This document shows, one piece after another, positions 23,826 through 62,198 of a stretch of 64,000 bases of DNA. The notes below the pieces were generated by a model. The model ran no database searches and was not told the DNA's origin. It saw nothing but the letters and a program-made list of their open reading frames with translations. The stretch is taken from positions 264,962 through 328,961 of the forward strand of contig JBAZTA010000003.1 in assembly GCA_041662125.1 (NCBI GenBank). The letters are read 5' to 3'. This DNA is from Candidatus Omnitrophota bacterium (GTDB lineage Bacteria; Omnitrophota; Gorgyraeia; Gygaellales; Profunditerraquicolaceae). How positions within the stretch are numbered: position 1 is the stretch's first letter; each line of letters starts with the position of its first letter. The translations under genes and the position numbers were made by a program.

Positions 23826-23826
23826 A

Positions 23827-26362: not shown

Positions 26363-26372
26363 AACACCTTTT

Positions 26373-29280: not shown

Positions 29281-30206
29281 CCAAGCTCCTTGCGTACGTC
29301 CGCCAGGACGTTTTTCGCCAGCGTCTTTAGAAAATCATTTTCAAAATGTTTAGTCAAAACATATACGGGATCTCCCTCTGTCTCCTCAATGACCGGCCAA
29401 TCAGATAATTCTACCGTGGGAGCTGCCCCCGCATGATAATTAATATATTTTCCTTCAGGATACTCATCGGTCTTCATACGCCAGTCACCAAGGGTGCGAA
29501 GGGAAACTTCAATGATTACCGGAGTTTTTTCAGCCAGTGCTTTTGCGCGCGCTTTCTCCAGCAGCGGGATATATTCAAAAACGTCATTTCCTTTAATTAA
29601 TTCATATGGTATTTTAAAAGCAGAGGCAAAACGATCGAGCGCTATATCGCATCTGCGCTCATGGATCTCTGTTGCCAAGGACCAATTATTGTTCTCGACA
29701 ATAATCAATGCCGCAGTAGCATATGTCTTCATCATCAGTAAGCTCTCTTGGAAAACCCCTTCTTCAATAGCCCCATCACCGATGACAACGATAGCCACAC
29801 CTTTTGTTTTCTTAACGGTGTTTCCTAAGGCTACACCGGTAGCAACAGCCATTTGGTTCCCCAGGATACTTGAGGTATACAAAACTCTTTTCTCCTCATT
29901 GTAAAGGTTCATGCATCCCAATTGGCCGCCAGCCTCTCCTGAATCAAGGCATAAGTATTCAGCGATCTTTTGTTTTAATGAAGGGCTGAGCGCCAAATTA
30001 TAATGGATATTCCGGTGCGTCAATAATAACCAGTCGTTTTCTTTCATTATAGAAGCCAGCGCTACCGCTATAGCCTCATGCCCTAATGCCAAGTGAACCG
30101 GGATTTTAAATTGTTTTTGTTTATTTCCCTGGTTTACCAGCATCTGGCAGAACCGAAGACGCAAGACTTCCCGAGCATTTTTTTTATTATCTTTTTTAGT
30201 AGGCAT
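29277..30206 (-). CDS. Thiamin-diphosphate-dependent E1 component alpha-subunit-like protein
   Basis: 309 aa. 'GHEAIAVALASI' (GQEA-like). ThDP-binding 'GDGAIEEGVFQESL...ENNNWS'. Confidence 0.7.
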   Translation of the reverse strand: MPTKKDNKKNAREVLRLRFCQMLVNQGNKQKQFKIPVHLALGHEAIAVALASIMKENDWLLLTHRNIHYNLALSPSLKQKIAEYLCLDSGEAGGQLGCMNLYNEEKRVLYTSSILGNQMAVATGVALGNTVKKTKGVAIVVIGDGAIEEGVFQESLLMMKTYATAALIIVENNNWSLATEIHERRCDIALDRFASAFKIPYELIKGNDVFEYIPLLEKARAKALAEKTPVIIEVSLRTLGDWRMKTDEYPEGKYINYHAGAAPTVELSDWPVIEETEGDPVYVLTKHFENDFLKTLAKNVLADVRKELG

Positions 30207-32259: not shown

Positions 32260-33252
32260 TTAAACCGCCGATTGATCGTAATAGGTGATCCGCGTTCCTG
32301 CGTTCTCAAATTTAAAAGGAAGGCGATAGAGATTATTCAGGGCATGCGCAACTGCCGGCTGTTTTTTCGGTTCTACAAAAAACAGCAGAAATCCGCCTCC
32401 GCCTGCTCCAAGCAGTTTACCTCCCAGCGCCCCTGCCGATAAAGCACGGTTATAATACCCATCGATTTCCGAAGAAGAAATTTCATCGGTTATACTCTTT
32501 TTTAAAAGCCACCCTTTATGCAATAAACGCCCAAATTCGCGTATATCAGCGCCGCTGGAAAGGATCTCACGCAAAGGAGCGACTAAATCCCTCATTGCAA
32601 CAAGCACATGCCGCTTCTCTTGGGTCTTGGTGTTTTGAACAGATAAAATATCGTGCGCATCGCGCTTTATCGCGGTATAAAACAACATCAGATGATTTTC
32701 AATAGTTTCTTTTATTTCAGGGCGGTAAAAAACCGGGTCGACCGAAACAGTGCCGTCAGTATGAAAGGTAAAGACATTAAGGCTCCCATACGCGGCAGCG
32801 TAATGGTCTTGCTTGCCGATAGTGCGCTTCAAAACATCGATCTCAAGGCGTGAAGCCATTCCGGCTAAGACGCCTTTGGTTACCATTTTCCCTTTTAATG
32901 CAAAAAGCGCATGCAAGAGTCCTACGGCGAAAGAACTCGAAGACCCTAAGCCGGTATTAGCAGGTATATCGGCAAACGTGGAAACTTCAAGCGGAATATC
33001 TAAATCCATCATCTTCAAGGCTTCACGTACGATCGGATGTTCGATATCTTCAATCTTATCCTTAAACTCGACCTTACTCCAATTGATACGGAACTTATAT
33101 TCTGAAATAGCAGTCTGGCGTTTTACCGCCACATAAATATACTTATCAATACCGGTGCTGATGACCTGCCCTTCTTCTTTTAAATAAAACTCCGGCAAAT
33201 CGGTGCCACCGCCGGCAAAACTGATTCGAAAAGGAGTCCTTGATAGTATCAT
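32260..33252 (-). CDS. hddA: D-glycero-alpha-D-manno-heptose 7-phosphate kinase (GHMP kinase, HddA type)
   Basis: 330 aa. N-terminus 'MILSRTPFRISFAGGGTDLPEFY' matches the HddA/fucokinase-type GHMP kinases. ATP-binding 'NTGLGSSSSF'. Confidence 0.75.
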   Translation of the reverse strand: MILSRTPFRISFAGGGTDLPEFYLKEEGQVISTGIDKYIYVAVKRQTAISEYKFRINWSKVEFKDKIEDIEHPIVREALKMMDLDIPLEVSTFADIPANTGLGSSSSFAVGLLHALFALKGKMVTKGVLAGMASRLEIDVLKRTIGKQDHYAAAYGSLNVFTFHTDGTVSVDPVFYRPEIKETIENHLMLFYTAIKRDAHDILSVQNTKTQEKRHVLVAMRDLVAPLREILSSGADIREFGRLLHKGWLLKKSITDEISSSEIDGYYNRALSAGALGGKLLGAGGGGFLLFFVEPKKQPAVAHALNNLYRLPFKFENAGTRITYYDQSAV

Positions 33253-34469
33253 GCGCTCACCAAATTATCAAATGCTTCAGATACATTTTTAAATACATAC
33301 CGCGGCCTTTCATCCGGTTGGAGTTTTTTTAATTCATCGACTGGCCCCGTATAAACACAGGCGCATCCGGCCTGATACGCTGCCTGGCAGTCCCGGGAAT
33401 CATCTCCAATAAAAAAAGTTTTATCTAACCGAAAGAGCCATTTACGGGAGGCCTCAAAGAAAAGCCCTGGTTGGGGCTTACGGCAAAAACATTTCTCTTC
33501 CCAGTGGTGCGGGCAAACAAAAATATCTATAATAGGGATCCCTTGATCTTCAAGAGCCCGCTTCATTCGTTTATGAATATCATCAACTGCTTCCCGCGTT
33601 ACCAACCCTCGGGCTATGCCTGCCTGGTTAGAAATGACAATAAACGAATAACCGGCTAAACTGAGCTTTTTCATTCCTTCGACATTTTCCCGCATGAATG
33701 AAAAAGCATCCCATGAAGACACATATTCACCGCGCAAAGCCTTATTATTTATGACTCCATCACGGTCAATCAGCAGGATTTTCTTTGGGCATAAATACTT
33801 TTGGGCCACCTTCAAACGATCCATGTCTGAGATACTGTAATACGCATCCAAAACGAGCATCCCAGCCACTTCTCCCGCCGATACCAACTTGTTTATTATA
33901 TCAGAAAAACTTACCTTTGAACAAGTATAATATTTGAATATTTTCTTACTGACAACCATATACCCCAGCTCAACCAAATCCAATCCTTGAGCCTGGCGGG
34001 ACGTATCATAAGCTTCTACAATCCCGCATTCTCCCAATCGAATATTGCCGTTTTCTTTAGGCGTAACTATAAAACTAAGCAGCTTTTTGTGCTGATTGTA
34101 AAACGATACGCTTTTTTTTAAGCTAAAGACGAGGAAATTATCACTATACAAAAGTAAAAAATGTTCCTGGAGCATATCCCGGGCTTCAAAAAGCCTTCTG
34201 CCGGTCTCCCATTCTGCCGGCCCATGAGAATAGAGTATCCTCAATCCCAGTTTTTCTCCATCTCCGAAATAATTACGGATCTGCTCTCCCAAATACCCTG
34301 TCATCAAAAGAATTTCGCTAATACCGTTATCTTTAAGCTGCTCCAGAAGATACTGTAAAAAAGGAACGCCGTTAATCATGACCATCGGCTTAGGCATCGT
34401 GTCTGTTATCGGGCGTAACCGTACCCCTAATCCGCCGCAAAATATAGCCGCCTGCTTAGGAGAAACCAT
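33249..34469 (-). CDS. Bifunctional heptose-1-phosphate nucleotidyltransferase (HddC-like) / D,D-heptose 1,7-bisphosphate phosphatase (GmhB-like HAD) fusion
   Basis: 406 aa. N-terminal 'AAIFCGGLGVRLRPITDTMPKPMVMINGVPFLQYL' sugar-1-P nucleotidyltransferase. C-terminal 'ILLIDRDGVINN' HAD motif I. Confidence 0.7.
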   Translation of the reverse strand: MVSPKQAAIFCGGLGVRLRPITDTMPKPMVMINGVPFLQYLLEQLKDNGISEILLMTGYLGEQIRNYFGDGEKLGLRILYSHGPAEWETGRRLFEARDMLQEHFLLLYSDNFLVFSLKKSVSFYNQHKKLLSFIVTPKENGNIRLGECGIVEAYDTSRQAQGLDLVELGYMVVSKKIFKYYTCSKVSFSDIINKLVSAGEVAGMLVLDAYYSISDMDRLKVAQKYLCPKKILLIDRDGVINNKALRGEYVSSWDAFSFMRENVEGMKKLSLAGYSFIVISNQAGIARGLVTREAVDDIHKRMKRALEDQGIPIIDIFVCPHHWEEKCFCRKPQPGLFFEASRKWLFRLDKTFFIGDDSRDCQAAYQAGCACVYTGPVDELKKLQPDERPRYVFKNVSEAFDNLVSA

Positions 34470-38351: not shown

Positions 38352-39506
38352 TTATACTGATTCTTTTACGTTTTGCTTATTGATCCAGTCGGCGAATTCT
38401 TTTATATTCGAAATATCTTTCAAAAGGATCGCCCCCTGCCAGAGGCTTTGCACTTTAGACTTCTTTGCGCCTGCCAAGAGAAGAAATAAGCGCTGCCAAC
38501 TCTGCGTATCAAAAAATATCGTCAATACGCACAACCAGTCAAAAAAAGACAATTTTCCCATCCAGCGGATAATATCACCCCCAGAAGCAGCCCGGGAACG
38601 ATACTGCAGATACCAGGAATAAACCTGCCGACGCACGTAATTTGCCCGGCTGATCTCAACAGCACTCAAAAGCTCAGGATAATTAGTCTTGAGAAGTTGC
38701 AGCCACACATACATGCAATTATTAAGCTCAATCCCCGCAAGCCTGCCTTTGAAATCAGAATTTATCCCTAAATATTTCTTGCCTTCATCCTGTTTGTCGC
38801 TATACACGTAATGGCCAAAGGATTTAGGAGAAACCCCGACTACCAGCATTTTTTCAGGAAGAAATACCCAGGAATTAACGGTCAACAATAAAGAATTTAA
38901 CGCGTAATGGTCAGGAAATGGCGGTTGAAAAGCCCCACCCTTGATCGTATTCATTGCTTTGCGCGACATTAATGTCGTCTGCATATTCAGAGGGATACGA
39001 TTACGGAAAGAGAACATGTCACGGACAATTGAAAGCCTTTTTTCCGTTAAAATTAATCCTTCTCTTGTGAAATCCGGCCCAAAATTAAAAAAAGGATCTT
39101 TATAAAAACTATTGGCGTTTCCGCTAATTGAATGAGGCGCTACATAACTATACGCGTTATAGGTGACACAGTCAGGATCATGATACGCATGTAAGACTTC
39201 TGCCATGCGGGAAAAATATCCCGGAAGCAGGCAATCATCATCACCCATCATCAATACATAATCGCCGCGGCTCGACTGGAGCGCACGATTCCAATTCTCG
39301 GTCACACACACCGGTTCTTCTAACGTCACCACTTTCAGGCGCTTATCAGAGATAAAAGAATGAATAACTTTTTTAGTTTCATCGGTATTGGCATTATCAG
39401 AAACGACTAACTCCATATCCTGGTACGGCTCATCTAAGATAGAATGCATGCAATGCGAGAGGAAACGCCCTCCGTTACGAGTAGGCAGCAGCACAGAAAA
39501 TTTCAC
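38352..39506 (-). CDS. Glycosyltransferase family 2
   Basis: 384 aa. 'SVLLPTRNGGRFLSHCMHSIL' and 'VVSDNANTDETKKV' (DxD region) of the GT2 family. Confidence 0.75.
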   Translation of the reverse strand: MKFSVLLPTRNGGRFLSHCMHSILDEPYQDMELVVSDNANTDETKKVIHSFISDKRLKVVTLEEPVCVTENWNRALQSSRGDYVLMMGDDDCLLPGYFSRMAEVLHAYHDPDCVTYNAYSYVAPHSISGNANSFYKDPFFNFGPDFTREGLILTEKRLSIVRDMFSFRNRIPLNMQTTLMSRKAMNTIKGGAFQPPFPDHYALNSLLLTVNSWVFLPEKMLVVGVSPKSFGHYVYSDKQDEGKKYLGINSDFKGRLAGIELNNCMYVWLQLLKTNYPELLSAVEISRANYVRRQVYSWYLQYRSRAASGGDIIRWMGKLSFFDWLCVLTIFFDTQSWQRLFLLLAGAKKSKVQSLWQGAILLKDISNIKEFADWINKQNVKESV

Positions 39507-40756
39507 TTCTTATTCTCCTTATCTTTAAGATTCAGATATATTTCTTCAACATAACCGCTCCTGACCCATGAAGCATTTCTCCCAAGGCGTTTAAAACCCC
39601 CTACCTGAGCAACAACTTCAGGCACCCATACCTGCGGTTTTCCATGCACGATACTATAAGCTTCATGATTATAACTGAAAAATATGCCGCGCAGGCGCTT
39701 TTTCGCAAACGAGATATACGCGCTTACGATTTCTTCCGACATCTCCGGCATGCTGTTTTCATTCACCAACACATCGATATCCTGCTTTATTGCCGGCTCA
39801 AAAGCAACATTCGGCAGGATAGATATACAAGCGCTTGATTGGTCAATTTCTCCGTATAACTTCACCTGCCTTACGGTGAACGCCTGCGATAAAAAATATC
39901 CCTGCAACACGTTTATTAACGGCAAATCAATAATAGTATACGTTCTGATCTTAAGGTCCTTAAGTTTCAACAACCAATACGCTAATCCTCCAAAACCAGC
40001 GCCAATTTCCAGCAGATTGAGCTCATTGCCTGCTGTAACATTCAAATGATCCCGGGCAGCCTGACTGATACGCAGTGCGACATAAAGATGTTCAGGATGT
40101 TCCATAGTTATTAACGAACTATTCGCTTTAACGCCGTAGGGACTGCCTATATCAGGGAATCCTATTGAGATGCCCAAACAGGCTTCGATTTGAGAGACAA
40201 CTGCTGTAATCCCGTCCTTTAAACCATACGCTCTAAGCCCTTGTTGAGTAGATTCAGCGCGTACCAAACCCAAGTATTCCGCCAATGAAACCACATTGTC
40301 TTGATATTTCAATGACCAGATTTTACTTCCTATCCGGCTCTTGGAATGTTCCACTAAACTCCCCGAAGCTAAACCATACACAAAATCCTCCCGGAACATC
40401 CTGGATAAAAGCAAAGCTAATTCGTGCGCGTTTCCTCTCTCAACAACAGTCATAAGCTTCCCGGAATAACGCTTAAGGCCTTCTGACCAGATCAGGCTCG
40501 TATTGTTTTCTGGCGTTGATCTCTCAGCGGTAGCTTTACGATACGCGGCGATCAAACGTTCACATAAAACCACGTCTTCTTGAGATACCTCTTTAGCCTT
40601 ATTGTATATGATTTTCAACGTAGGGACCTTTTTTAAATTAAAAACCCAAAGATAGTGCTTCAAATATTTAAGCAGATCATAATTTATAAGCGAAACCCCC
40701 ATCGCCCGGGAGAGCCTGCTGTTGAGGATTTTTTTTATACTGTTCTTTAAAAACAT
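39503..40756 (-). CDS. Putative SAM-dependent (sugar O-)methyltransferase, large LIC12133-like type
   Basis: 417 aa. Motif I 'LLEIGAGFGGLAYWLL' in the C-terminal half. Long N-terminal domain of unknown function. Confidence 0.45.
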   Translation of the reverse strand: MFLKNSIKKILNSRLSRAMGVSLINYDLLKYLKHYLWVFNLKKVPTLKIIYNKAKEVSQEDVVLCERLIAAYRKATAERSTPENNTSLIWSEGLKRYSGKLMTVVERGNAHELALLLSRMFREDFVYGLASGSLVEHSKSRIGSKIWSLKYQDNVVSLAEYLGLVRAESTQQGLRAYGLKDGITAVVSQIEACLGISIGFPDIGSPYGVKANSSLITMEHPEHLYVALRISQAARDHLNVTAGNELNLLEIGAGFGGLAYWLLKLKDLKIRTYTIIDLPLINVLQGYFLSQAFTVRQVKLYGEIDQSSACISILPNVAFEPAIKQDIDVLVNENSMPEMSEEIVSAYISFAKKRLRGIFFSYNHEAYSIVHGKPQVWVPEVVAQVGGFKRLGRNASWVRSGYVEEIYLNLKDKENKK

Positions 40757-40770
40757 TTTTGTATCTCTGA

Positions 40771-41658
40771 TTAAGGTTTGATTTTTTGAAAAACAACCGT
40801 ATAGGCGCTGCTTTTACCTTTCAGGCGGTCAAACACATTCATGGGCAGGGCAACAAGATACCCCAAACAAAAAGCTAACTTCTGAAACAAACGGCTGGAG
40901 CATCGATTCATCAGATACCGCTGCCAGCCAAATCTATTCCAACTTCGTGCGCCTTTATCATTAAAACTAACCAGCATCGGTTCTAATCCTAAAGGCTTCA
41001 TGTGTTTTATCAAAAGCTCAAGCGGGATCAAACAAAGGTGCCGAGGCGCATCCACATGAGGCCAGCATGCTCCCTGAAACCGGAATTGCGCTGCAGCAGG
41101 ATTCGGCGTTGCTATTAAAAAGACCCCTTTATCATTAAGCTTTTGCGCTGCCTTGGAAATAAATTCCCACGGAAACGGCAAATGTTCGATCACATGCCAT
41201 AAGGCGATCACATCATAGTTTTTTGCCGAGTCAAGGGCTGTATGCGGCGAATTACTTTGTACGGTTTTAACGCCAATGGTGTTACGTAAAAACTCGCAGC
41301 ACTTCTTTTCCTTCTCAATTACTTCCACATCAAAACCTGCAGTTTTTGCCTGATACGCGAAAATTCCAAATCCCGGGCCAACTTCAAGCAGGCGTCCGGT
41401 TTTGACAAAAGCAGTGACCATTGCAAGCTGATACGCCTCTTTACGGGCGACTGATCTTACTTTTTCTACTGTCGGCGGACAATAATACTCATCCCCATAA
41501 TACGCATCAAGGTCAACAGGGATATTTGACAAAAAGATCAATTGGCACTCAAAACACAACCGATAGTCAAAAATTTCGCCGGAAACTTTCCTGTTCACAT
41601 CTTTGGTTTTAAACACGATGCCAGAATCTTTTTTACAGCGGGGACAGGTTTCCTGCAT
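40771..41658 (-). CDS. Class I SAM-dependent methyltransferase with N-terminal zinc-ribbon
   Basis: 'CPRCKK...CFECQ' and motif I 'LLEVGPGFGIFAYQA'. Start uncertain; the track Met at 41724 overlaps the upstream gene by 56 nt. Confidence 0.6.
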   Translation of the reverse strand: MQETCPRCKKDSGIVFKTKDVNRKVSGEIFDYRLCFECQLIFLSNIPVDLDAYYGDEYYCPPTVEKVRSVARKEAYQLAMVTAFVKTGRLLEVGPGFGIFAYQAKTAGFDVEVIEKEKKCCEFLRNTIGVKTVQSNSPHTALDSAKNYDVIALWHVIEHLPFPWEFISKAAQKLNDKGVFLIATPNPAAAQFRFQGACWPHVDAPRHLCLIPLELLIKHMKPLGLEPMLVSFNDKGARSWNRFGWQRYLMNRCSSRLFQKLAFCLGYLVALPMNVFDRLKGKSSAYTVVFQKIKP

Positions 41659-41668
41659 AAACTTTATT

Positions 41669-42580
41669 TTATCCTTTCGGCACCGTAAGCTTCCACCAGG
41701 CAATGGTCTTATCAAGGGCTTCATTCATACTGAATTTAGGTGACCAATTGACTTGGTCTTTTAATCTCTTAACAGAGGCGATCAAAACCGATGGCTCATC
41801 AGGTGAAACCTTAAGTAACCCAAATTTCACTAAAGCAGGCCGGCCGACCTTTCCGGCAATAAGGCCAATGATATCTTTTATTGAAACAGCTTCACCTGAG
41901 CCGATATTAACTGCCCCTTCGATAGTGCTTTCCAGGATGGATACAAACGCTCCAGCGACATCTTCGACGTATAAAAAATCGCGTTTTTGGCTGCCTGACG
42001 AACAAGCCACCTCTTTACCCTGCAAAAGAGAACAAATAACCGACGGCACTAACCGGGCGGGATGTTCTCCCGGCCCGTAAACGAAAAAAATCCTTCCCCA
42101 GGCCCAGCTCAAATGAGTTTCCAGAGAAAATTCTTCCAACTTCCGACGAAACTCATTTTTACACCTACCATATACAGTCGCTGGCGCTAAAGGAGTCGCT
42201 GTCTCATCGCAGCATTCTTTTGTCCAATCATACTCAGCGCAGGTACCCGCCGCAACAACGCGTATTCCACCGTACTTTTGAAAAGTACGGGCTAAAAACA
42301 GGCTTGCCTGGACCCAATCATAATTCTCTTGAGCAGTCCAATATTTTTTATGCTCTGTATACCAGGCTAAATGCAATAAATGAGTCGGTTTTACCTTCTG
42401 CATCAACGCTTCTATATCAGAAGTGTTAAGTAAATCCGCCTGGTGCCATACAATCTCATTCTTTGGAGATTGATCATTGAGAAGCGAAACAGCATGGACT
42501 TCATAGCCTTTTTCAATAAGTAATGGTAACAGGTGTCTTCCAATAAAACCTTGAGATCCGGTAACCAGGATTTTCTTCAT
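41669..42580 (-). CDS. NAD-dependent epimerase/dehydratase-family reductase
   Basis: 303 aa. 'ILVTGSQGFIGRHLLPLL'. Paralog of 34456..35343. Confidence 0.65.
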   Translation of the reverse strand: MKKILVTGSQGFIGRHLLPLLIEKGYEVHAVSLLNDQSPKNEIVWHQADLLNTSDIEALMQKVKPTHLLHLAWYTEHKKYWTAQENYDWVQASLFLARTFQKYGGIRVVAAGTCAEYDWTKECCDETATPLAPATVYGRCKNEFRRKLEEFSLETHLSWAWGRIFFVYGPGEHPARLVPSVICSLLQGKEVACSSGSQKRDFLYVEDVAGAFVSILESTIEGAVNIGSGEAVSIKDIIGLIAGKVGRPALVKFGLLKVSPDEPSVLIASVKRLKDQVNWSPKFSMNEALDKTIAWWKLTVPKG

Positions 42581-42615: not shown

Positions 42616-45270
42616 TCAATCGGCGTCATCGTTTAACAAAAAAGCATATTTTCTTAAAAAATCCCTGCCGATCCTTGATAGCGAACCATATGAATAATGC
42701 GTAGGATTCATCAACGCTTTAAAACGGCTCTGCAGCAGTTCATCTTCTTTTCCATAGGTAAGCAAACCGTCTTTTTTATCTAACATTTCCAAGGCCAATT
42801 CACGGATATCAGCCGGAGTATTTTCGTGAGGGCTGGCCCCGGCCCGGACAAATAAATGGTCAAACAAAAAATGGCCAAGGGGTGATTGAAGAACCTCTTT
42901 GAAACGTAAATAGCGTTTTTCTTTTTCTGACCATATAAGTTTCGGGATTCCGATATCATCGGCCCCGTACGGCAGGGATCCGCAGAGATGCGCGTAATTA
43001 GCGATTGCCGCAGAAACACCAAAAATACTGGCAACGTGGTATAAACCGGAATCACTTCCCAGAAAAAATTTACAACTGGCGCAAAGAAAAACATCAAGCT
43101 GTTGGCTTTTATTTTTTGAATGCGCATAATCGATAACATGTTCCTGGTAAGGCAGCGGCTTCATGGTCGCATCACCCATACGCACAACCCATCCTCCCCT
43201 CTTCACAATAGCCTCAACCGCTAAAAGATAATTATTGATATCGGCGTTACGCAGCGACTGGTTAACCTGGCCAAGATACCCATCTTCCCGGCAATGCAGG
43301 CAGACAAACCATGCACCCTGCGGCATACCTTGTTCCTCAAGAAAGGCCTGCCCGCGTTTACGGTCAGTTTCGCTTAATTTCAGAAGCGGCGGACGGCTAG
43401 CGAATTTCTTTTGAATTTCAGGAAAATACGCTGCCCCTTCAGAAAAAGCAAAACGATACGTTGCATACCCGGTCAGTTGATTACGGGCCAGCGGCTCCAA
43501 TAACGAACAAAGCCAGGCAGAACGAATAATGCGAAGATATTTTTCCCAATATCCTAAAAGATGAGCGTTAGAAACCTTACCAGGATGCGCAAGAAGGATC
43601 GTATTGTATTGAGGCCTCATACCCAGTATACCCTCTTTCAGATAACCATCGATCTCAATACAAAGATGCCCAATCGCCCGCTCAGACAAATAAATAAATC
43701 TTACATTAAACAGCCTGCAGATCGGATAGCAAACGATACCTGCAGCCTGACAAAATACTTTATAAATAATCTGCTGCGCGGCTTTTCCCACACAATATAA
43801 AATCCCTTTTTCTTTTAATCTACGGATAAAATATTCATTCCGCAGCGATAATTCCAGCTGTTCAAGGTTATCCTTATGCCACAACCTTCGGCAGCGCTGC
43901 CAGGTCAATACGACAAAAGGAAAAACAAGCAGATTAACTGCTAAAAAACTCCAGGACATCCCCTCTACCCCATAACGACGCCCTAAAACAACCGTGCAGA
44001 AACCGGTAACAATACCAAAAGTTAATGATATCCATAAAAGCGGTTCTCTCTTATGCGCTCTTAAATAGGCGGAAAGCGGCAAGGTCAATGTTGAGATACC
44101 TTGTGCAGCCAGAAAAACAGCTACAGGTAACGGAGATAAAATACGCGATGAGAATGGGTGGCCCGCCTGGTAAAGCATAAATACCAAGAACCACACCATT
44201 ACAGAAACACCCGCGGTTATAACCGTAAAGATCCTCGTTGTCCTCCAAAAAAGCTCATCAAGTTTTTTATAATCTTTTCGGGCGATCAAAATCCCGAATT
44301 GGGGGACCCGGGGAGATAACCACGCTGCCGCGATACCGGCAATAGCGCCGATAACACTCCAGGTCATGCCAAATTGTCCAGCAATAACCGGCCCGTGATA
44401 CCGAAAAAGTATTGGAGTAAAAAGAGAAAAAACAAAATATCCGCTGATCCAACTCAGCGCTATCCTCCATTGCATAGGAAGGATCTCTTTGCGCCAGTCA
44501 ATACGGCATGCGGATGGCTTGGTAAAAAGAAGTGTTTTAATAAATCCGCTGTATCGATATTTAAAGAATATAACGGAACATATAATAATTGAAGCGACAG
44601 AAAGCGAAGCTGCCCACAATCGCGCGCCGGCAAGTATAGCGATCCAAACAGTTAAACTTGAAACTATTCCCTGCAGGAACCGGTATGTGTAAACCGAGGC
44701 AACTTGATTACAGCCCTCCAAGATTGACCACAGAGGGATGAAACAAACAATAATGCCGGTAAGAAAACACAGCGTAAACCAAGGTAATGGCCAATCCACA
44801 CTGGAAATTGCTGAATGCGAGAAAAAAACATATCCTCCCAGGCCTAAACCAAAAGCAATGATACATCCGCCAACCAGATACCAGCGGCTCGTAATATGCG
44901 CTAAACTGATTAACCGTGATAAAGCAGCACTATCTCCCGTAATACCCCGGTCTTTATCTAAACGTAATTTCGACCACTCGTGACTGGCGAATTGGATAAT
45001 AACGGTCCCCAGCCCTAATTCCACAAAAATTTGCAACGCTAACAAACTGCTGAAAGTATAATAATATCCCTGGTATTCAGGAGAAAAGCGAAGCGTTATT
45101 AATAACGCCGTCAACGGACCGGCAATAATACTCCACCCTCTGCTTAAAATTCCAAAAAAAACAGGGCGGTCAACCTCAAACTTTGACAAAAGATTGATTA
45201 TCCGGTCTTTAAACAAAACTGCGATCGATTTCTTTTTATAGAGGGCCGATTCCATCAGTTTAGATTTCAT
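42616..45270 (-). CDS. Fusion protein: N-terminal Wzx/MOP-like polytopic membrane domain + C-terminal soluble transferase-like domain
   Basis: 884 aa. Residues about 1-480 contain at least 12 hydrophobic helices. Residues about 480-884 are hydrophilic with conserved Cys/His and no canonical motif ('...GAWFVCLHCREDGYLG...FLGSDSGLYHV...'). Confidence 0.5.
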   Translation of the reverse strand: MKSKLMESALYKKKSIAVLFKDRIINLLSKFEVDRPVFFGILSRGWSIIAGPLTALLITLRFSPEYQGYYYTFSSLLALQIFVELGLGTVIIQFASHEWSKLRLDKDRGITGDSAALSRLISLAHITSRWYLVGGCIIAFGLGLGGYVFFSHSAISSVDWPLPWFTLCFLTGIIVCFIPLWSILEGCNQVASVYTYRFLQGIVSSLTVWIAILAGARLWAASLSVASIIICSVIFFKYRYSGFIKTLLFTKPSACRIDWRKEILPMQWRIALSWISGYFVFSLFTPILFRYHGPVIAGQFGMTWSVIGAIAGIAAAWLSPRVPQFGILIARKDYKKLDELFWRTTRIFTVITAGVSVMVWFLVFMLYQAGHPFSSRILSPLPVAVFLAAQGISTLTLPLSAYLRAHKREPLLWISLTFGIVTGFCTVVLGRRYGVEGMSWSFLAVNLLVFPFVVLTWQRCRRLWHKDNLEQLELSLRNEYFIRRLKEKGILYCVGKAAQQIIYKVFCQAAGIVCYPICRLFNVRFIYLSERAIGHLCIEIDGYLKEGILGMRPQYNTILLAHPGKVSNAHLLGYWEKYLRIIRSAWLCSLLEPLARNQLTGYATYRFAFSEGAAYFPEIQKKFASRPPLLKLSETDRKRGQAFLEEQGMPQGAWFVCLHCREDGYLGQVNQSLRNADINNYLLAVEAIVKRGGWVVRMGDATMKPLPYQEHVIDYAHSKNKSQQLDVFLCASCKFFLGSDSGLYHVASIFGVSAAIANYAHLCGSLPYGADDIGIPKLIWSEKEKRYLRFKEVLQSPLGHFLFDHLFVRAGASPHENTPADIRELALEMLDKKDGLLTYGKEDELLQSRFKALMNPTHYSYGSLSRIGRDFLRKYAFLLNDDAD

Positions 45271-46303
45271 TCATTCTAACCAGTACGCGCCCGGCGGCTG
45301 TATGCTCCATGAATCTCAGAGCTTCATTAATATCTTCTAACTCGTAAACGCGGCAAATCAATTTCCCCAGGTTAAGTTTACCTGCAATGGCGAATTTTGC
45401 GAACTTCGGGATATCCCTGTCCGGCTGTGTTTCTCCTCCCCAGCTACCAATGATCCGTTTACCTTTAATAAAATCAAACGGGTCTATGTGGATCTTTTGG
45501 CCTTCACTGAGATTACCAGCAATAACACATAAGCCTCCCTTATCCTTCACTGATTTAAAAGCAAATTCCATCGATTCTTTTTTTCCCGCACATTCAAACG
45601 AAAAGTCAGCTCCGCGAGGCAAAATTAAGCCGAGAGCTGCCAAAACATCTTCTTTTTGAGCATGTATGGTATGCGTGGCGCCAAAAGATCTTGCCAAAGT
45701 AAGCCGCTCATCAGAAATATCAACTGCAATAATAATTTCAGCTTCATTCAAGCAGGCAGCCAGAAGGGCGCTTAAGCCGATCCCCCCCATCCCAAAAATA
45801 ACCACACTGCTTCCTTTTTTAACCTGAGCAGTATTTATTACAATGCCGGCGCCTGTAGGGATCGCACAACCCAACAATGCTGCTTGGTCAAGGGCCAGCT
45901 CATTTGGTATTTTGACTAAGCGGTTTTCAGAAACAACCGCTTTGGTCAAAAACGTAGAGATCGCGCCGGAATTGATCAGCCTTCCGTCAAGCGCCTTATA
46001 CGCAGCCGAGGGAATATCTAACCCATTGCCTTTGATCCAGGTCAAAACAACGCGGTCTTTCGGCTTAACCTTAGTTACGCCCTCTCCAATAGCTTCGACT
46101 ACCCCGGAACCTTCATGCCCCAAGGTATGCGGAAGAAACTTATCTTCTCCTTTTAAACCATGGATCTCATTTAACTGGGAATGACAGATCCCGCTGTAAG
46201 CGACATTGACAAGCACCTGGCCGTGTTTGAGAGGCGGAACATTAAGTTTTTCAAGAATCAAAGGCCTGTTTATTTGAGTTAATACTGCCGCGGTAGTTTC
46301 CAT
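45260..46303 (-). CDS. Zinc-dependent medium-chain alcohol/polyol dehydrogenase
   Basis: 'GICHSQLNEIHG' and 'GHEGSGVVEAIGEGV' Zn-ADH signatures. 'GMGGIGLSAL' Rossmann. Start trimmed to 'METTAAVL' with SD AGGAG. Confidence 0.7.
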   Translation of the reverse strand: METTAAVLTQINRPLILEKLNVPPLKHGQVLVNVAYSGICHSQLNEIHGLKGEDKFLPHTLGHEGSGVVEAIGEGVTKVKPKDRVVLTWIKGNGLDIPSAAYKALDGRLINSGAISTFLTKAVVSENRLVKIPNELALDQAALLGCAIPTGAGIVINTAQVKKGSSVVIFGMGGIGLSALLAACLNEAEIIIAVDISDERLTLARSFGATHTIHAQKEDVLAALGLILPRGADFSFECAGKKESMEFAFKSVKDKGGLCVIAGNLSEGQKIHIDPFDFIKGKRIIGSWGGETQPDRDIPKFAKFAIAGKLNLGKLICRVYELEDINEALRFMEHTAAGRVLVRMNEI

Positions 46304-46334
46304 AGAGTATTCTCCTGCATAAATTAGAGAGTGT

Positions 46335-47006
46335 TTAATCAGCAATAAACCACCAGTAATCACCGTTAAAACCTACTTCTGAAAACAGCTTTTTCCAATC
46401 ATCAACATGCATCATCGTCTCGGCAGTAAGCACCCATTTAAAAAGATTCTCACGTTCCAGGTCATTGCGCCAGGCATCAACAGTAATATAGCTGTGGCCG
46501 CGCGAAACCCGTTCTATTTCACGCAGAGAATTTTTAAGGCGTTCAAGCGGAAGGTTATGTATCGAATTTATGGAAATAACCAGGTCAAAACTTTTATCGG
46601 GAAAGGGCAGTATTTCAGCGCTTGCTATCTTAAGATATGGTTTAACATCTTCCAGGGCATTTTCAATCGCGTAGCGGCTGACATCGACACCGGCGATTGC
46701 AGCTTTCGGCAACGCTACTTTAAAATCATAAAGGAGGAAGCCTTTCGCGCATCCAATATCCAAGACCGCGGCATTATCGGGTAAATGATAATATTCTATC
46801 AAGCGTTTCACGACCAGTTTCCAACGTCCGTCATACTTGTAACCGCCGTACCCGCACTTTCTATCACCGTCAAAAAAATCTTTACCGAACTCTTTAGCGA
46901 GTTTAATAATATCCTTTGTTTTCTCTTGCGCGCGCCGATCATAATCTCGCGCGGTCTTTGGATGTGAATCTAATAAATTGATCTCTTTTCCCATATTCAG
47001 TATCAA
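46335..47006 (-). CDS. Class I SAM-dependent methyltransferase
   Basis: 223 aa. 'VLDIGCAKGFLLYDF'. Confidence 0.7.
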   Translation of the reverse strand: MILNMGKEINLLDSHPKTARDYDRRAQEKTKDIIKLAKEFGKDFFDGDRKCGYGGYKYDGRWKLVVKRLIEYYHLPDNAAVLDIGCAKGFLLYDFKVALPKAAIAGVDVSRYAIENALEDVKPYLKIASAEILPFPDKSFDLVISINSIHNLPLERLKNSLREIERVSRGHSYITVDAWRNDLERENLFKWVLTAETMMHVDDWKKLFSEVGFNGDYWWFIAD

Positions 47007-47027: not shown

Positions 47028-48812
47028 TTATGTATTAACAGACGATTCGTGGGAGGCAACGATCATAGCTTCCCTGAACTCCCCACGATCCAAAAGCGGT
47101 TCAGAATCTTCTAACGCCCTGCCAAACTTCACTTGAGGCAATACCTTTTCATCAGTATGGATCTCAACATTACAAAAGGCCGGACAGTCTGTTTCAAGGG
47201 TATCGACTATTCCGGCGTTGAGATCCTTTTGAGCAGTGATCTGAGTTGTTTTATAACCATAAGCTTTCGCTACTTTAATAAAATCAGGAAATGCTAAGCC
47301 ACTTTCTACTGTAGAAGCAACATATCGGCTGGAAAACCATTGATCCTGCGTCTGTTTGATCATGCTGTACCCATGATTATTGATCAAGAATATCTTTATC
47401 GGTAGATCATGCCGTATAACAGTAGCAAGCTCCTGGATATTCATCTGTAAGCCCCCGTCACCGGTAACACATATTATACGTTTTTTCCCCAGTGCAAAAC
47501 AAGCCCCGATACTGGCCGGCAAAGCATACCCCATAGGAGTATTATTGAAAGCGCTGAAAAGCTTTTGTTTTTTCTTAAACTCAAAGCCTTGCGACATCCA
47601 CGCCACACTACAGCCGGTATCGAGAAATACAACATCACCTTCTTTAAGTTTTTCTGAGAGTCGTTTAACAAACACATAAGGATTAACTTTCTTTTCTTTC
47701 AACGCCTGCTGGCTGCACACCGGATATTTCTTCTTCCACAGGCCGATCTTTTTTACCCAGTCATGAATATCTTCCGGCACTGCCTGTTGAATTCTTTTAT
47801 GCATAGCCAAAAGGAATTCTTTGGCATCTTGATTGATCAAGAGTTCAACATCAAGGCCTAAAACTTTAAATTTCTTGAGTTCATGGATATCAACATCAAC
47901 AACGATCTTCTTGGCTTCCCGCGCGAATGTTGACAACGGAGAACCGGCTTCACGGGTATCCAGGCGTGCTCCGATAGAAAGGACCAGGTCAGCGTTTTGA
48001 ACAGCAAAGTTGCCATAGCGGCTCCCGTGTGTCCCAAAAGATCCGACTAAGAAAGGATGATGTTCAGGAAATAAATAACGCATAGCCCAGGTAGGAACAA
48101 CCGGGACCCTTACATCTTCGACAAAACGCAACGCTTCTTTTTCCGCGTTGGCAAGATAAACGCCCCACCCCAGAATTATAACAGGCCGTTCTGCTTTATG
48201 GAGCATACCGGCACAGGCATCGATCTGTTTTTGAAAAGCTGCAGTAGCAGTTCTTATTTTCGGAGGGATAAAAGATACTAAGCTATCCGGATCGATTTCC
48301 TGCCTTTGCAGGTTATCGGGAACATCGACCAAAACCGGCCCCGGCCTGCCGGACTTGGCAAGATATACGGCTTTTTCAAGTTCATAACGGATACGTTTAG
48401 CATCACGCACTTTAACCGCATATTTAGTGACCGGTTTAAAGATTTCAACCACATCAGTCTCCTGAAAGCCCAACTGCCGTATCCCTAAATTCCCTTTACA
48501 ACGAAAAGTCGCGACCTGGCCGGTTATAAAAAGCGTAGGAATAGAATCATAATACGAACAACAGACGCCCGTGAGCATATTCGTTGCTCCCGGCCCACTA
48601 GTCGAAATAGCGGCTCCCAAGTTCCCCGTAGCCCGGGAATATCCATCAGCAGCCATAGCGCACGCCTGTTCATGCTGCATGCATATATAGTCGATCCCTT
48701 TGGCCTTGGCAATTGAATCGATCAGATGAGCGGCAGCTCCGCCGGTTACGGCAAAAACATGCCTCATGCCCTGTTTCTTTAAAAAATATGCTATATAGTC
48801 AGACAGCTTCAT
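47028..48812 (-). CDS. Thiamin-diphosphate enzyme of the acetolactate-synthase-large-subunit family (YerE-like branched-sugar synthase candidate)
   Basis: 594 aa. N-terminal 'HVFAVTGGAAAHLIDSI...GPGATNMLTGV' Pyr domain. C-terminal ThDP motif 'GDGGLQMNIQELATV'. No ilvN/ilvC neighbours. Confidence 0.65.
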   Translation of the reverse strand: MKLSDYIAYFLKKQGMRHVFAVTGGAAAHLIDSIAKAKGIDYICMQHEQACAMAADGYSRATGNLGAAISTSGPGATNMLTGVCCSYYDSIPTLFITGQVATFRCKGNLGIRQLGFQETDVVEIFKPVTKYAVKVRDAKRIRYELEKAVYLAKSGRPGPVLVDVPDNLQRQEIDPDSLVSFIPPKIRTATAAFQKQIDACAGMLHKAERPVIILGWGVYLANAEKEALRFVEDVRVPVVPTWAMRYLFPEHHPFLVGSFGTHGSRYGNFAVQNADLVLSIGARLDTREAGSPLSTFAREAKKIVVDVDIHELKKFKVLGLDVELLINQDAKEFLLAMHKRIQQAVPEDIHDWVKKIGLWKKKYPVCSQQALKEKKVNPYVFVKRLSEKLKEGDVVFLDTGCSVAWMSQGFEFKKKQKLFSAFNNTPMGYALPASIGACFALGKKRIICVTGDGGLQMNIQELATVIRHDLPIKIFLINNHGYSMIKQTQDQWFSSRYVASTVESGLAFPDFIKVAKAYGYKTTQITAQKDLNAGIVDTLETDCPAFCNVEIHTDEKVLPQVKFGRALEDSEPLLDRGEFREAMIVASHESSVNT

Positions 48813-51390: not shown

Positions 51391-52455
51391 TTAAAAAGGG
51401 CCGGTAAAATTCTTATCCGGCACATCAAGGGGCGTTTCAGGATCAATACCCAGCGCTGATTCTGTCAGTTGAGACTTATTCAAAAGGCAGCGCACTTCAT
51501 TAACGATATCGATGGTCCGCGGATAATAATGGTTAGCCAATGCCCAGCTCGTTGGCGTAGGCACGTCAGGAAAAGCCAGGCGGCGCGGCGCTGCCTTAAG
51601 AGCAGCAAAACTCTTTTCTGACGCCAAAGCAATAATCTCAGCAGAAACGCCAAAACTTTTCCATGCCCCATCTACGACCAATAACCGTCCGGTCTTCTCC
51701 AGAGAGGCCGCTATCGCCTCTTCGTCAAGCGGCTTTATGGTCCGCAGATCAACTATTTCGATATCAATGCCATCTTCAGAGAGTAAACGAGCGGCTTTCA
51801 TCACTTCTAACGTCGTGTAGGATGAAGTCACCACCGTCACATCGCGGCCTATCTTCATAATACGCGCTTTTCCGATAGGAACCGTAAACATCTCTTTCGG
51901 GACATCGCCGAATGTTCCATGGAGCCAACGATGTTCAATATAGATTACCGGATTATCATCCTGGATAGCTGATATTAACAATCCTTTAGCATCCGAAGGA
52001 GTCGTGGGCATAACTACTTTAAGCCCGGGGATGTGCGCAAAAAGCGCTTGCAAGCTTTGAGAATGCTGCGGCCCCTGGCCCCATCCTCTGCCGACAAGCA
52101 GGCGTATCACTAAAGGCACGCTCATTTTTGAACCAAACATGTAATGCCATTTCGCGGCATTATTGATTATCTGGTCCAAAGATAAAAGCATAAAATCGAT
52201 CCGCTGGTGCGTCATGATCGGACGCATACCAACCAACGCAGAACCGATAGCTATACCAGTCATTGCGTTTTCTGCTACCGGCATATCTAAGACGCGCACT
52301 CGGCCAAACTTTTCCTGCAGGCCTAAGGTCGTCCCAAAAACACCTTTAGGGTCGGGAACACCTAATCCAATAATATAAACAGACGCATCAGACTCCATAC
52401 ATTGCGTAGTTGCTTCAAGCACTGCATTCGCGTATGTTATTTCTCTCGCCATCAA
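51391..52455 (-). CDS. Thiamin-diphosphate-dependent E1 beta-subunit-like protein (second copy)
   Basis: 354 aa. 'VYIIGLGVPDPKGVFGTTLGLQEKFG..RVLDMPVAENAMTGIAIG' is a typical E1-beta N-terminus. Confidence 0.7.
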   Translation of the reverse strand: MMAREITYANAVLEATTQCMESDASVYIIGLGVPDPKGVFGTTLGLQEKFGRVRVLDMPVAENAMTGIAIGSALVGMRPIMTHQRIDFMLLSLDQIINNAAKWHYMFGSKMSVPLVIRLLVGRGWGQGPQHSQSLQALFAHIPGLKVVMPTTPSDAKGLLISAIQDDNPVIYIEHRWLHGTFGDVPKEMFTVPIGKARIMKIGRDVTVVTSSYTTLEVMKAARLLSEDGIDIEIVDLRTIKPLDEEAIAASLEKTGRLLVVDGAWKSFGVSAEIIALASEKSFAALKAAPRRLAFPDVPTPTSWALANHYYPRTIDIVNEVRCLLNKSQLTESALGIDPETPLDVPDKNFTGPF

Positions 52456-52470
52456 ATATATTCCTCTTGG

Positions 52471-53436
52471 TTACGCATAAACACCGGTAAAAGCTTCACC
52501 CGGCTTCGGGAACGGGCTTTTTTGGGCAAAGCTAACGGCTTCATTGATCTCTAATTGGATACCAGTTTTATATTCATTAATGATCTTAGCAGTGATACTC
52601 CCCTTATGAAGCAACTTTCTCTGGTAGGTTTCCAGCGGACAACGCTTACACCAGCGGGAAAATTCAATTTCTGTCCGATAACCCAGTTCATTATCAAAGT
52701 TTGGGCCACAATGTTCCCTGAAACGATAGGTATCAAACTGCAAATAATACGGGCCCCTGAGGCTACGCGCGTACATAACAGCTTTTTTTGCAGCTTTAAA
52801 AACATATTCGACATCATTGCCGTCACCTTCTTCACCCTCAACACCAAAACCACGCGCAATCGAAAGATTATTACGTTTTTTAGGCTGACGCACGGAAAGC
52901 GGAGAATATACCGAAAAATAGTTATTTTCACAGACAAAGATCACAGGAAGTTTCTTAAGCGCGGCAAAATTCAAGCTTTCCGCGAACACCCCTTCTTCAG
53001 TAGCAGCATCGCCGAAAAATGCAACGCTGATAGAATGCTCTTTTTTCATCTGTATCCCAAAAGCGACACCCGCGGCAACAGGAATAATACCTGCGACAAT
53101 AGGAGTAGACCCCAGTATTCCGGCATCAAGATCAACCAAATGCATGGAACCGCCCTTGCCGCCTGAACACCCATTCTCTTTACCGTAAATCTCAGAGAAC
53201 ATAGCCTTAAGGCTTCCTCCCTTAGCAAGGTAATGGCCATGAGAACGATGATTGCTTAACACATAATCTTTTTTCAACAGATTCGCGCAGAGGCCAGCGG
53301 CAACTGCTTCCTGGCCGATACACAGATGCACCGGGCAGCGCATCTGCCACTGAGTATACACTCTGGCAATTGCCTCTTCAACCATGCGGATACGCAGCAT
53401 TTGGTAATACAAAGAAAGGGCGCTATCTTTTCTCAT
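52471..53436 (-). CDS. Thiamin-diphosphate-dependent E1 alpha-subunit-like protein (second copy)
   Basis: 321 aa. 'GQEAVAAGL'. ThDP motif 'FFGDAATEEGVFAESLN...CENNYFS'. Confidence 0.7.
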   Translation of the reverse strand: MRKDSALSLYYQMLRIRMVEEAIARVYTQWQMRCPVHLCIGQEAVAAGLCANLLKKDYVLSNHRSHGHYLAKGGSLKAMFSEIYGKENGCSGGKGGSMHLVDLDAGILGSTPIVAGIIPVAAGVAFGIQMKKEHSISVAFFGDAATEEGVFAESLNFAALKKLPVIFVCENNYFSVYSPLSVRQPKKRNNLSIARGFGVEGEEGDGNDVEYVFKAAKKAVMYARSLRGPYYLQFDTYRFREHCGPNFDNELGYRTEIEFSRWCKRCPLETYQRKLLHKGSITAKIINEYKTGIQLEINEAVSFAQKSPFPKPGEAFTGVYA

Positions 53437-54460: not shown

Positions 54461-55039
54461 TTACTCCTTCTTAGTATCGGCAATACTATCCAGCACATAA
54501 TGTAATAGAGAATGATGCATGATCTCTACATGGCTATATGCCTTTGCAGGCACATAAAAATTCAGGTCACCTGATGCGCGCAGCGGGTTCTCAGGAAGGA
54601 ATCCCGAAAAACTCACTACCAAGACTCCTTTCCTTCTGGCCGCTCTCACCGCAGCTAAAATATTGGGAGATTTCCCTGAGCTGCTGATCGCAACCAGGAT
54701 ATCGCCCTTATCCGCGAAAAGCTCAAGCGGTTTTTCAAACACATGGTCATAACCAAAATCGTTTGAGATACAGGTCAAAAGCGACGAATCATTAAAAGCT
54801 ATACCGCGGATACCCGCGTGCTTGGAAAAATCAACCGCCATGTGGCTGGAAATAGCCGCGCTGGCTCCGTTACCGATAAAGATAAGTTTTTTATTCCTGA
54901 GAGCGCAAGCCATAAACAAATCGGCAATTTTCTCAAAGCCTTTTTGCGTAGTAATTACCTTGCCGGTTTTATCCGTAATTATAATATTGTGCGTCAGCCC
55001 CCGTAAAACTTCATAGTAAGACTCGATTTTCTTATGCAT
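54461..55039 (-). CDS. gmhA: Sedoheptulose-7-phosphate isomerase (SIS domain, GmhA)
   Basis: 192 aa. 'LIFIGNGASAAISSHMAVDF' SIS phosphosugar-binding motif. 'SSSGKSPN'. Confidence 0.8.
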   Translation of the reverse strand: MHKKIESYYEVLRGLTHNIIITDKTGKVITTQKGFEKIADLFMACALRNKKLIFIGNGASAAISSHMAVDFSKHAGIRGIAFNDSSLLTCISNDFGYDHVFEKPLELFADKGDILVAISSSGKSPNILAAVRAARRKGVLVVSFSGFLPENPLRASGDLNFYVPAKAYSHVEIMHHSLLHYVLDSIADTKKE

Positions 55040-59610: not shown

Positions 59611-59770
59611 TCTTATGCTCCTTTTAAGATCACAACCTTCTGCACCTCAAAAGATTACAACAAAATTCTCTCCACCGCTTTATATGCTTATTAAATGCAG
59701 CTTAATTTATGCAAGAAAATATCCCTTTTTTTGTTTAGAAACTAACGAGTTTCGAGACAAATATCGTTAT

Positions 59771-59798
59771 ATTATACCGCTCCAAGCAAACAAATCAA
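59771..59798 (-). promoter_or_regulatory. Candidate sigma70-type promoter TTGATT-N16-TATAAT (minus strand) upstream of rfbF
   Basis: Reverse complement of the gap reads 'cTTGATTtgtttgcttggagcggTATAATataac'. Located about 160 nt upstream of the rfbF start. A GAAACT-aacg-AGTTTC hairpin lies in the leader. Confidence 0.35.
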
Positions 59799-59811
59799 GC
59801 TTTTTAGATAT

Positions 59812-59970: not shown

Positions 59971-59981
59971 AAAAACTCCTT

Positions 59982-62193: not shown

Positions 62194-62198
62194 AAGTT

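Follow-up and report, generated by a model that had tools for sequence, protein, structure and literature searches.

Two groups of described proteins come closest to the two halves of the protein considered here: Wzx flippases (PST family) of the MOP superfamily, and glycosyltransferases (GTs) of family GT9. The lipid III flippase WzxE of E. coli (pdb:9G9N and 9G9O) has twelve transmembrane (TM) helices, cytoplasmic termini and an Arg-rich C-terminal tail, and is encoded in a glycan locus. The paper describing the structure reports that the protein depends for its activity on this tail, located at the cytoplasmic entrance; it proposes that the tail recruits the diphosphate, and considers that a supramolecular complex might exist (PMC11706664). 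Among MOP flippases, the one for pneumococcal teichoic acid, TacF, acts as a ‘gatekeeper’ and exports only units decorated with phosphocholine (PMC13385700). The GT9 heptosyltransferases are represented by WaaC, WaaF and TibC (pdb:2H1F, 1PSW, 4RAP and 3TOV). To our knowledge, no characterised Wzx carries an enzyme at its C-terminus. The gene described here does encode such an arrangement. It lies at 42616..45270 on the minus strand of a stretch of 64,000 nucleotides from Candidatus Omnitrophota bacterium (contig JBAZTA010000003.1, positions 264,962 to 328,961), hereafter the window, and joins a Wzx-like membrane domain to a 416-aa C-terminal enzyme of the TIGR04372 family. We regard it as rather probable that the product is a two-module enzyme-transporter of the inner membrane, a Wzx-type flippase and a TIGR04372 glycosyltransferase working on a principle of ‘finish, then flip’.

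The gene is a single unbroken open reading frame (ORF) of 884 codons followed by a TGA stop, as the original prediction had said without stating the strand. All 58 credible genes of the window, and all its features given below unless stated, are on the minus strand. The frame lies far beyond chance, since an exhaustive search of database representatives with the fusion protein recovered 8,354 proteins at E<=1e-3, 2,383 of them at E<=1e-30. Had a sequencing or assembly indel joined two truly separate neighbouring genes, the architecture would be an artefact, a concern already voiced in the original prediction; the window does derive from a metagenome-assembled genome (MAG), and several genomes have the two as separate genes whose ends overlap slightly, by a few bases, such that an error of one base could fuse them. 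However, at least eleven other continuous, full-length two-part proteins (ten of 841–868 aa with 42–82% identity, and P0211 of 839 aa) come from independent samples and assemblers and show three distinct types of junction. They were found in JGI, ENA, Logan and NCBI assemblies, with other Omnitrophota and a Sideroxydans MAG among the sources. The fusion is a single open frame in the species-representative genomes of an Omnitrophota (L012), a ‘Planctomycetales’ MAG (L013) and Sideroxydans (L024), and likewise in two metagenome loci (L089 and L090). Conservation is uninterrupted through the junction between the halves, and the nearest relatives, with 82% identity (P0002, L012 and L013), are fused in exactly the register of the window protein. 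As the fusion, including its junction sequence, is conserved across independent samples and assemblies, an indel is excluded for practical purposes and the chance that the architecture is artefactual is negligible. The protein is identical to NCBI MFA6217316.1 from a 395,841-bp contig, entered as ‘MAG: TIGR04372 family glycosyltransferase [Candidatus Omnitrophota bacterium]’, and JGI, like NCBI, already names it as a TIGR04372 protein.

The membrane half (aa 1–468) begins with a Lys-rich cytoplasmic tail (aa 1–34; 45169..45270), followed by a Wzx-like domain with the MOP fold (aa 35–455; 43906..45168) recognised by hydropathy, structure prediction with AlphaFold2 (AF2), Foldseek, NCBIfam and conservation. 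Hydropathy gives 12 hydrophobic segments in about aa 35–455 with the remainder of the protein soluble, which bears out the polytopic, Wzx/MOP-like domain originally predicted. The N-terminus, the even-numbered loops and the segment after TM12 together have 43 Lys and Arg residues and the odd-numbered loops 6, which by the positive-inside rule places both termini in the cytoplasm. The full-length AF2 model has a pLDDT of 94.2, with the membrane domain above 90. In a Foldseek search of the PDB, four WzxE structures (9g9o, 9g9m, 9g95 and 9g9n) are the best matches, with E-values of 4.5e-8 to 4e-7, TM-scores of 0.70–0.73 on the target and about 440 aligned columns; MATE transporters, PfMATE among them, and MurJ rank below them. 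The modelled domain thus has the fold expected of a Wzx, with 12 TM helices in two six-helix lobes and cytoplasmic termini, and like Wzx, but unlike MurJ and TacF, it has no extra TM13–14.

An alignment of 60 sequences shows that the family has a motif set of its own, unlike that of WzxE: QGYYYTF (67–73), SHEW (96–99), LEGCNQV (184–190) and YLRAHKREP (402–410), with further conserved residues at R119, E185, R197, D338, R376, R404 and H406. In Wzx flippases the central cavity is lined by arginine pairs and an acidic residue. After TM12 comes an Arg-rich cytoplasmic tail, TWQRCRRLWHKDN (aa 456–468; 43867..43905), in which TWQRCRRLWHK (aa 456–466) follows the family pattern W-x-R-C-R-x-x-W-H, and R461 and W464 are at least 90% conserved among the 60 homologues. 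Members of this family are mostly standalone proteins of about 450–490 aa, and because the standalone homologues end directly after the tail, aa 456–468 mark the fusion junction.

The C-terminal half (aa 469–884) had been thought to be a possible novel family without a canonical GT motif, and neither part of this survived. NCBIfam TIGR04372 matches aa 653–854 with E=2.5e-60 and 203.5 bits against a cut-off of 45, model positions 1–207 being matched in full, and the region contains the GT9-type motif GSDSGLYHVA (aa 738–747; 43030..43059). The whole half aligns end to end with >600 proteins, most of them standalone, 400–450 aa in length and 45–67% identical, and >100 standalone proteins cover 96–100% of it; it is therefore a complete member of a catalogued family and not a new one. 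The original prediction had named a match to a well-known family as something that would count against it. The match found is to a family that has a name, but no member of it has been studied, and TIGR04372 is without a Pfam model. Searches of PDB sequences with a 75-sequence profile of the C-terminal module, and with the N-terminal domain as a single sequence, returned nothing.

The module opens with a helical hairpin (aa 469–520; 43711..43866), also present in standalone members, and continues with a putative acceptor-side, Rossmann-like N-terminal domain of a GT-B fold (aa 521–650; 43321..43710), including the beta1-loop motif AIGHL (aa 532–536; 43663..43677), and a donor-side C-terminal domain (aa 653–854; 42709..43314) that is the region matched by the TIGR04372 model. 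The donor domain also contains the motifs FVCLHCRED (655–663) and LCASCKF (729–735). The description of this half as hydrophilic and rich in conserved Cys, His and Asp was accurate: it has 11 Cys and 12 His, with family-conserved Cys, His, Asp, Arg and Lys positions (H535, C657, H659, R661, C733 and others), and the alignment of 75 family sequences from which conservation was judged has 19 invariant columns. Most members conserve two CxxC-like pairs, C657/C660 and C730/C733, which might bind a metal as the Cys cluster of TibC does.

Prediction of the structure of this half and a fold search, both originally proposed as checks, point to GT9. AF2 run on the alignment of the module gives a pLDDT of 95.9 and a pTM of 0.92, and 3tov, WaaF, WaaC and TibC rank first in Foldseek, so in the model the module is a GT-B fold closest to GT9 structures. 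It differs from GT9 in its additional N-terminal hairpin, in the two CxxC-like pairs and in being about 70–100 residues longer. In sequence the relationship is faint. The window protein has no match to Pfam PF01075 (GT9) and only 2 of the 75 family members touch that model, at E>=0.2, so on sequence the module would not be placed in GT9. WaaF ‘VILIAACKAIVTNDSGLMHVAAALNRPLV’ aligns with ‘VFLCASCKFFLGSDSGLYHVASIFGVSAA’ of the window protein at the GT9 donor-binding signature with E=1.4e-3, and GSDSGLYHVA aligns with the donor motif of both WaaF and WaaC. With hhalign, a four-sequence GT9 alignment scores E=1e-3 over 243 columns at a probability of 22%, versus E-values of 0.18–0.6 for controls from GT4, GT8, GT26, GT30 and GT56; of the four GT9 sequences used singly, two, WaaQ (0.19) and WaaU (0.6), do no better than these controls. 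The donor-binding signature appears to be the only echo of GT9 in the sequence, and across the family it is reduced to GSxSGLxxxA, with G, S, G and A alone conserved against the D(S/T)GxxH(L/V)A of GT9. G534 is invariant and H535 at least 90% conserved, and they are placed after beta1 where GT9 has its catalytic Gly-Asp (D13 in WaaC), so that the Gly-Asp appears here as Gly-His. The equivalence of His to Asp is positional, as global hhalign of the GT profile against GT9 gave no supported alignment of the N-terminal catalytic motif.

The position of the transferase relative to the membrane depends on the hairpin. Its second helix is hydrophobic in many standalone members, where the hairpin is probably a peripheral membrane anchor. 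In the window protein the approximate insertion energy of this helix is +7.2 kcal/mol, less favourable than the –1.4 to +5.5 of the 12 TM segments; family-wide the median is +2.6 in standalone members (n=33) and +5.3 in fusions (n=11; p=0.02), the standalone helices being the more hydrophobic. The lower hydrophobicity in the fusions fits an anchor made dispensable by tethering. We asked whether the helix before beta1 might be a thirteenth TM segment, placing the GT in the periplasm, and rejected this given the value of +7.2 kcal/mol, the Lys/Arg-rich stretch preceding the helix and the compactness of the modelled module (pTM 0.92), and also given that an enzyme using nucleotide sugars would be without a donor outside the cell. 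The GT module would thus be cytoplasmic.

The two halves of the fusion also exist as neighbouring genes, and a search for orthologues with separate halves, suggested with the original prediction, was successful. A Syntrophales MAG (L007) has a membrane gene of 450 aa (54% identical) and, starting 2 nt further on, a TIGR04372 gene of 416 aa (50% identical). In a Lindowbacteria MAG (L008) the pair is adjacent but convergent, and the genes around it are otherwise unrelated. Species-representative genomes supplied 76 TIGR04372 loci, and in 13 of these the membrane gene is fused or adjacent; of the 13 loci most similar to that of the window, 10 have it so. Seven of the loci with the partner are split pairs with order unchanged and frames often overlapping. 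One further locus (L004) has a fusion followed by a second TIGR04372 gene.

Fusion has occurred repeatedly. The distance from the RCR tail to the IGH motif is 70–73, 55–56 or 49–50 residues, and the histories of the halves are discordant: P0010 and P0012 are 57% identical to the window protein in the N-terminal half and 28% in the C-terminal half, while the standalone P0091 is 67% identical to the C-terminal module, closer than most fused versions. Three junction lengths together with these discordant histories imply at least three independent fusion events. The architecture is nevertheless rare, with two membrane-TIGR04372 fusions among the best 150 representatives. TIGR04372 proteins are typically standalone or are giants of 1,300–1,550 aa, several of which have two TIGR04372 modules; in the present protein, unlike these, the module sits behind a flippase. 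Four giants of 1,337–1,551 aa (P0212, P0213, P0214 and P0220) with two TIGR04372-type stretches suggest multi-module, polymerase-like enzymes built from this family.

The membrane domain also has other partners. It is fused elsewhere to a GT2 (seven cluster representatives), a methyltransferase, a HAD-like module or a module of about 355 aa, and in one locus (L005) a GT2 fusion occupies the exact syntenic slot of the window fusion, after a methyltransferase, a NUDIX and a Zn-dependent alcohol dehydrogenase (Zn-ADH) gene. The GT2 part of this fusion (P0040) resembles PglI, EpsE and TuaG, which act on undecaprenyl-diphosphate oligosaccharides. As judged from these sequences, the partner slot of the membrane domain is interchangeable. 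In a survey of 80 metagenome loci the membrane protein was usually standalone, and 42 immediately downstream genes included 12 GT2, about four GT4-type, one polysialyltransferase-like and one TIGR04372 gene, together with about seven methyltransferases and four B12/radical-SAM enzymes; this tally is consistent with the proposed function but not decisive, because GTs are common in such loci anyway. The 355-aa module, beginning MRYNLVTVVWGEEHTD, has no match in Pfam or NCBIfam. It precedes the membrane domain in P0020, P0017, P0015, P0021 and P0024, and loci with it have a standalone TIGR04372 gene directly next, as in L001, where the module (10001..11065) and the membrane domain form an 825-aa protein. 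The coupling of a translocase to a transferase that had been predicted is thus upheld by neighbouring genes in several phyla, by at least three fusions and by GT2 and methyltransferase partners; the notion of a novel family that accompanied it is not. The literature searched describes no Wzx-GT fusion, nor could the fusion architecture, the split and fused evolutionary pattern or the GT9-like placement of TIGR04372 be found there.

That the pairing has been fused at least three separate times suggests a physical link between export and the addition of the last sugar. Module 1 (aa 1–468) would be a 12-helix flippase for a lipid-linked glycan with the Arg-rich tail at its cytoplasmic mouth, and module 2 (aa 469–884) a complete TIGR04372 protein joined to it end to end with no extra linker. 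The GT would take a nucleotide-activated sugar made by the surrounding genes and add a late or terminal residue to an undecaprenyl-diphosphate oligosaccharide at the cytoplasmic leaflet, beside the flippase entrance. The Arg-rich tail would then capture the diphosphate of the finished unit, and flipping would follow. Tethering would in this way provide substrate channelling and restrict export to completed units. The nearest concept is that of TacF, to which the fusion may be analogous in exerting quality control over completed units, here by a tethered decorating enzyme. TacF differs in its 14 TM helices, in a cavity that recognises phosphocholine and in the lack of a fused decorating enzyme, and homology between the two is shown only at the level of the superfamily fold.

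The donor might be a modified heptose, as heptose-pathway homologues lie near about half of the TIGR04372 loci. The window has four candidate heptose-pathway genes: an HddA-like GHMP kinase (32260..33252), a fusion of an HddC-like NTP-transferase and a GmhB-like phosphatase (33249..34469), a GmhA-like isomerase (54461..55039) and an HldE-like bifunctional enzyme (55045..56571). The last has the adenylyltransferase N-terminal and the PfkB kinase C-terminal, the reverse of the domain order of E. coli HldE, and scores 187 against an equivalog cut-off of 521. The same swapped HldE-like architecture is found two genes upstream of a Sideroxydans fusion (L003). A heptose-pathway homologue occurs within 6 kb in 26 of 47 TIGR04372 loci; among control loci that have the membrane domain but lack TIGR04372, the count is 5 of 20 (Fisher p=0.03). 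The modelled GT9-like fold and these neighbours make a heptose-type donor a reasonable but unproven guess.

Several findings weigh against the flippase-transferase model, the first group of which concern the membrane half. No Wzx model was matched at E<=1 when Pfam was run against the whole protein, and nothing else meaningful was found; NCBIfam NF041503 (WZX_like) is matched with E=2e-12 but with 46.8 bits against a cut-off of 300; and when the membrane-domain profile was compared by hhalign with E. coli WzxE and with the canonical Wzx of the window, neither alignment was significant. The domain accordingly has the fold of Wzx but falls outside the recognised Wzx sequence families, its sequence being so divergent that neither the Wzx models of Pfam nor profile alignment to WzxE recovers it. 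The canonical Wzx/MOP flippase, whose presence had been correctly predicted, is a 503-aa protein (10748..12259) matching Pfam Polysacc_synt (2e-21), Polysacc_synt_3 and MatE; it has no similarity to the membrane domain of the fusion at the level of BLAST, and neither half of the fusion has a paralogue elsewhere in the window. Because the locus already has this protein, a second flippase is not obviously needed. The full-length model has a pTM of only 0.71, so the orientation of the two domains relative to each other is uncertain.

The presence of a canonical Wzx and the divergence of the membrane domain would also fit a domain that has lost flipping activity, or never had it, and is a scaffold that anchors the GT at the membrane and presents the lipid-linked acceptor, with the canonical Wzx performing export. 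The hydrophobic helix of standalone TIGR04372 proteins is relaxed in the fusions, in keeping with a membrane domain that at the least replaces an anchor. A complete 12-TM MOP fold with a WzxE-like Arg tail and charged motifs kept in thousands of homologues nevertheless exceeds the needs of an anchor, the family consists mostly of standalone proteins with the size and shape of a working flippase, and many loci show no other Wzx, the canonical Wzx query being unmatched in any locus in the sequence examined. A scaffold is the main rival to the flippase-transferase, and we consider it unlikely.

The remaining points against the flippase-transferase concern the enzyme and its pathway. In 63 of the 76 TIGR04372 loci there is no membrane partner. 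The more distant TIGR04372 genes lack it, and at least one of them (L009) precedes an ABC-2 transporter pair; the GT thus has no inherent requirement for this flippase. Neither an initiating (phosphoglycosyl) transferase nor Wzy, Wzz/Wza or an ABC exporter could be recognised among the genes of the window, and for this reason the lipid-linked pathway is itself inferred. The heptose enrichment relative to the related control loci is modest, and the four heptose-type genes of the window, although their best NCBIfam hits are to heptose-pathway models, all fall below the equivalog cut-offs. The literature searched makes no mention of TIGR04372. Since the catalytic Asp of GT9 is apparently His here and the D and H of DSGxxH are not conserved, the chemistry and the donor may differ from those of GT9. 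There is a slim chance that the module is a non-Leloir enzyme with a GT-B fold, such as a phosphotransferase like TagF, with a CDP-activated alcohol or sugar phosphate as its donor, or an enzyme that hydrolyses or epimerises nucleotide sugars.

The pathway could also be of another type, a three-component decoration in which the GT makes a polyprenyl-monophosphate sugar and the MOP domain flips this donor for a periplasmic GT-C enzyme. Fusing the donor-making enzyme to its flippase would make sense, and an unannotated 12-TM protein (24917..26455) could be the transferase acting in the periplasm. The GT2 that replaces TIGR04372 in P0040, however, resembles PglI, EpsE and TuaG and not the GtrB/ArnC types, and no GT-C family is matched in the window. 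The polyprenyl-phosphate glycosyltransferases known to us are GT-A (GT2) enzymes, not GT-B or GT9-like, and donors of this kind are flipped, as far as we know, by small proteins of the GtrA or SMR type and not by MOP proteins with 12 TM helices. Such a decoration system is therefore quite improbable. For the protein at 24917..26455, which has 512 aa and 12 hydrophobic peaks, sequence searches of Pfam, NCBIfam and the PDB gave no match. Its function might be that of a polymerase of the Wzy type, of a ligase or of an enzyme resembling GT-C, and its identity bears on the type of pathway.

The genes around the fusion form a cassette common to the window, the loci L001 and L004 and the contig of P0002. 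Before the fusion are a PDH-E1 alpha/beta-like pair, a dehydratase, an SDR, a methyltransferase, an acetolactate-synthase-like enzyme dependent on thiamine pyrophosphate (TPP), a second methyltransferase and the Zn-ADH. The last of these (45260..46363) directly precedes the membrane-domain gene in related loci as well, as a conserved neighbour, and its stop overlaps the start codon of the fusion by 11 nt. After the fusion come an epimerase, a methyltransferase, a TIGR04371-type O-methyltransferase, a GT2, a dehydratase, a C-methyltransferase and a cupin 3,5-epimerase. The conserved block directly downstream (38352..42580) comprises an SDR epimerase/reductase (41669..42580), a methyltransferase (40771..41724), a TIGR04371-type putative sugar O-methyltransferase (39503..40756) and the GT2 (38352..39506).

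The window as a whole has a uniformly negative GC skew, and its only two plus-strand ORFs of at least 150 aa each lie inside a longer minus-strand ORF. The 60 ORFs of at least 150 aa include three GT modules, two MOP proteins and the one 12-TM protein that could not be classified. More than 40 genes are sugar-modifying; they encode many methyltransferases dependent on S-adenosylmethionine (SAM) and three B12/radical-SAM enzymes, along with aminotransferases, dehydratases and C-methyltransferases. A cassette for a nonulosonic acid of the pseudaminic-acid type (12283..24828) contains PseI (14313..15428; 492 bits versus a cut-off of 340), PseB-like (23827..24828), PseC-like (22668..23840), CMP-sugar synthetase-like (18569..19342) and PseG-like (17516..18559) genes, two radical-SAM/SPASM enzymes (12283..13302 and 13299..14300), WbqC, two formyltransferase-like genes and a PIG-L deacetylase. 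The sugar locus also encodes, at 47028..48812, 51391..53436 and 28342..30206, a single TPP enzyme resembling acetolactate synthase and two pairs resembling PDH-E1 alpha/beta. TPP enzymes of this kind add two-carbon branches to keto-sugars, as in the yersiniose and aldgarose pathways, and their presence suggests branched-chain sugars. The sole sizeable gap (59611..60363), directly downstream of a carbamoyltransferase gene (60364..62229), contains two ORFs for small membrane proteins of 133 aa and 52 aa. Outside Omnitrophota, Microcoleus and other Oscillatoriales (L036, L043, L045–L049, L060, L067, L068, L078, L083 and L084) have one to three TIGR04372 genes per locus. Most of the Microcoleus genomes, from cultured and uncultured sources, have a GmhA-like gene within 10 kb, and these organisms could be tractable hosts.

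What gives Wzx its fidelity for complete repeat units, and whether it acts inside complexes with the cytoplasmic glycosyltransferases, are long-standing questions. Direct evidence for Wzx-GT complexes is scarce because the partners are separate membrane proteins of low abundance. A wider proposal, tentative and doubtful when all its parts are taken together, is that this Wzx-like family is a ‘finish-then-flip’ hub in obligatory complexes with whichever enzyme makes the last modification (TIGR04372, a GT2, a methyltransferase or the 355-aa module), the fusions being its fossil record, and that TIGR04372 is a new GT family descended from or sister to GT9, with a His-based catalytic centre and acting on unusual sugars, such as modified heptoses or branched-chain sugars. 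A natural covalent fusion of a Wzx-type protein and a GT, with split and translationally coupled orthologues and interchangeable partners, would be a ready-made system in which coupling could be tested. The analysis also offers a first structural and functional placement, resting on predicted structure, of TIGR04372, a family with thousands of members in Omnitrophota, Cyanobacteria, Proteobacteria, Planctomycetota and other phyla, as probable GT9-like GT-B enzymes associated with heptose-type sugar pathways.

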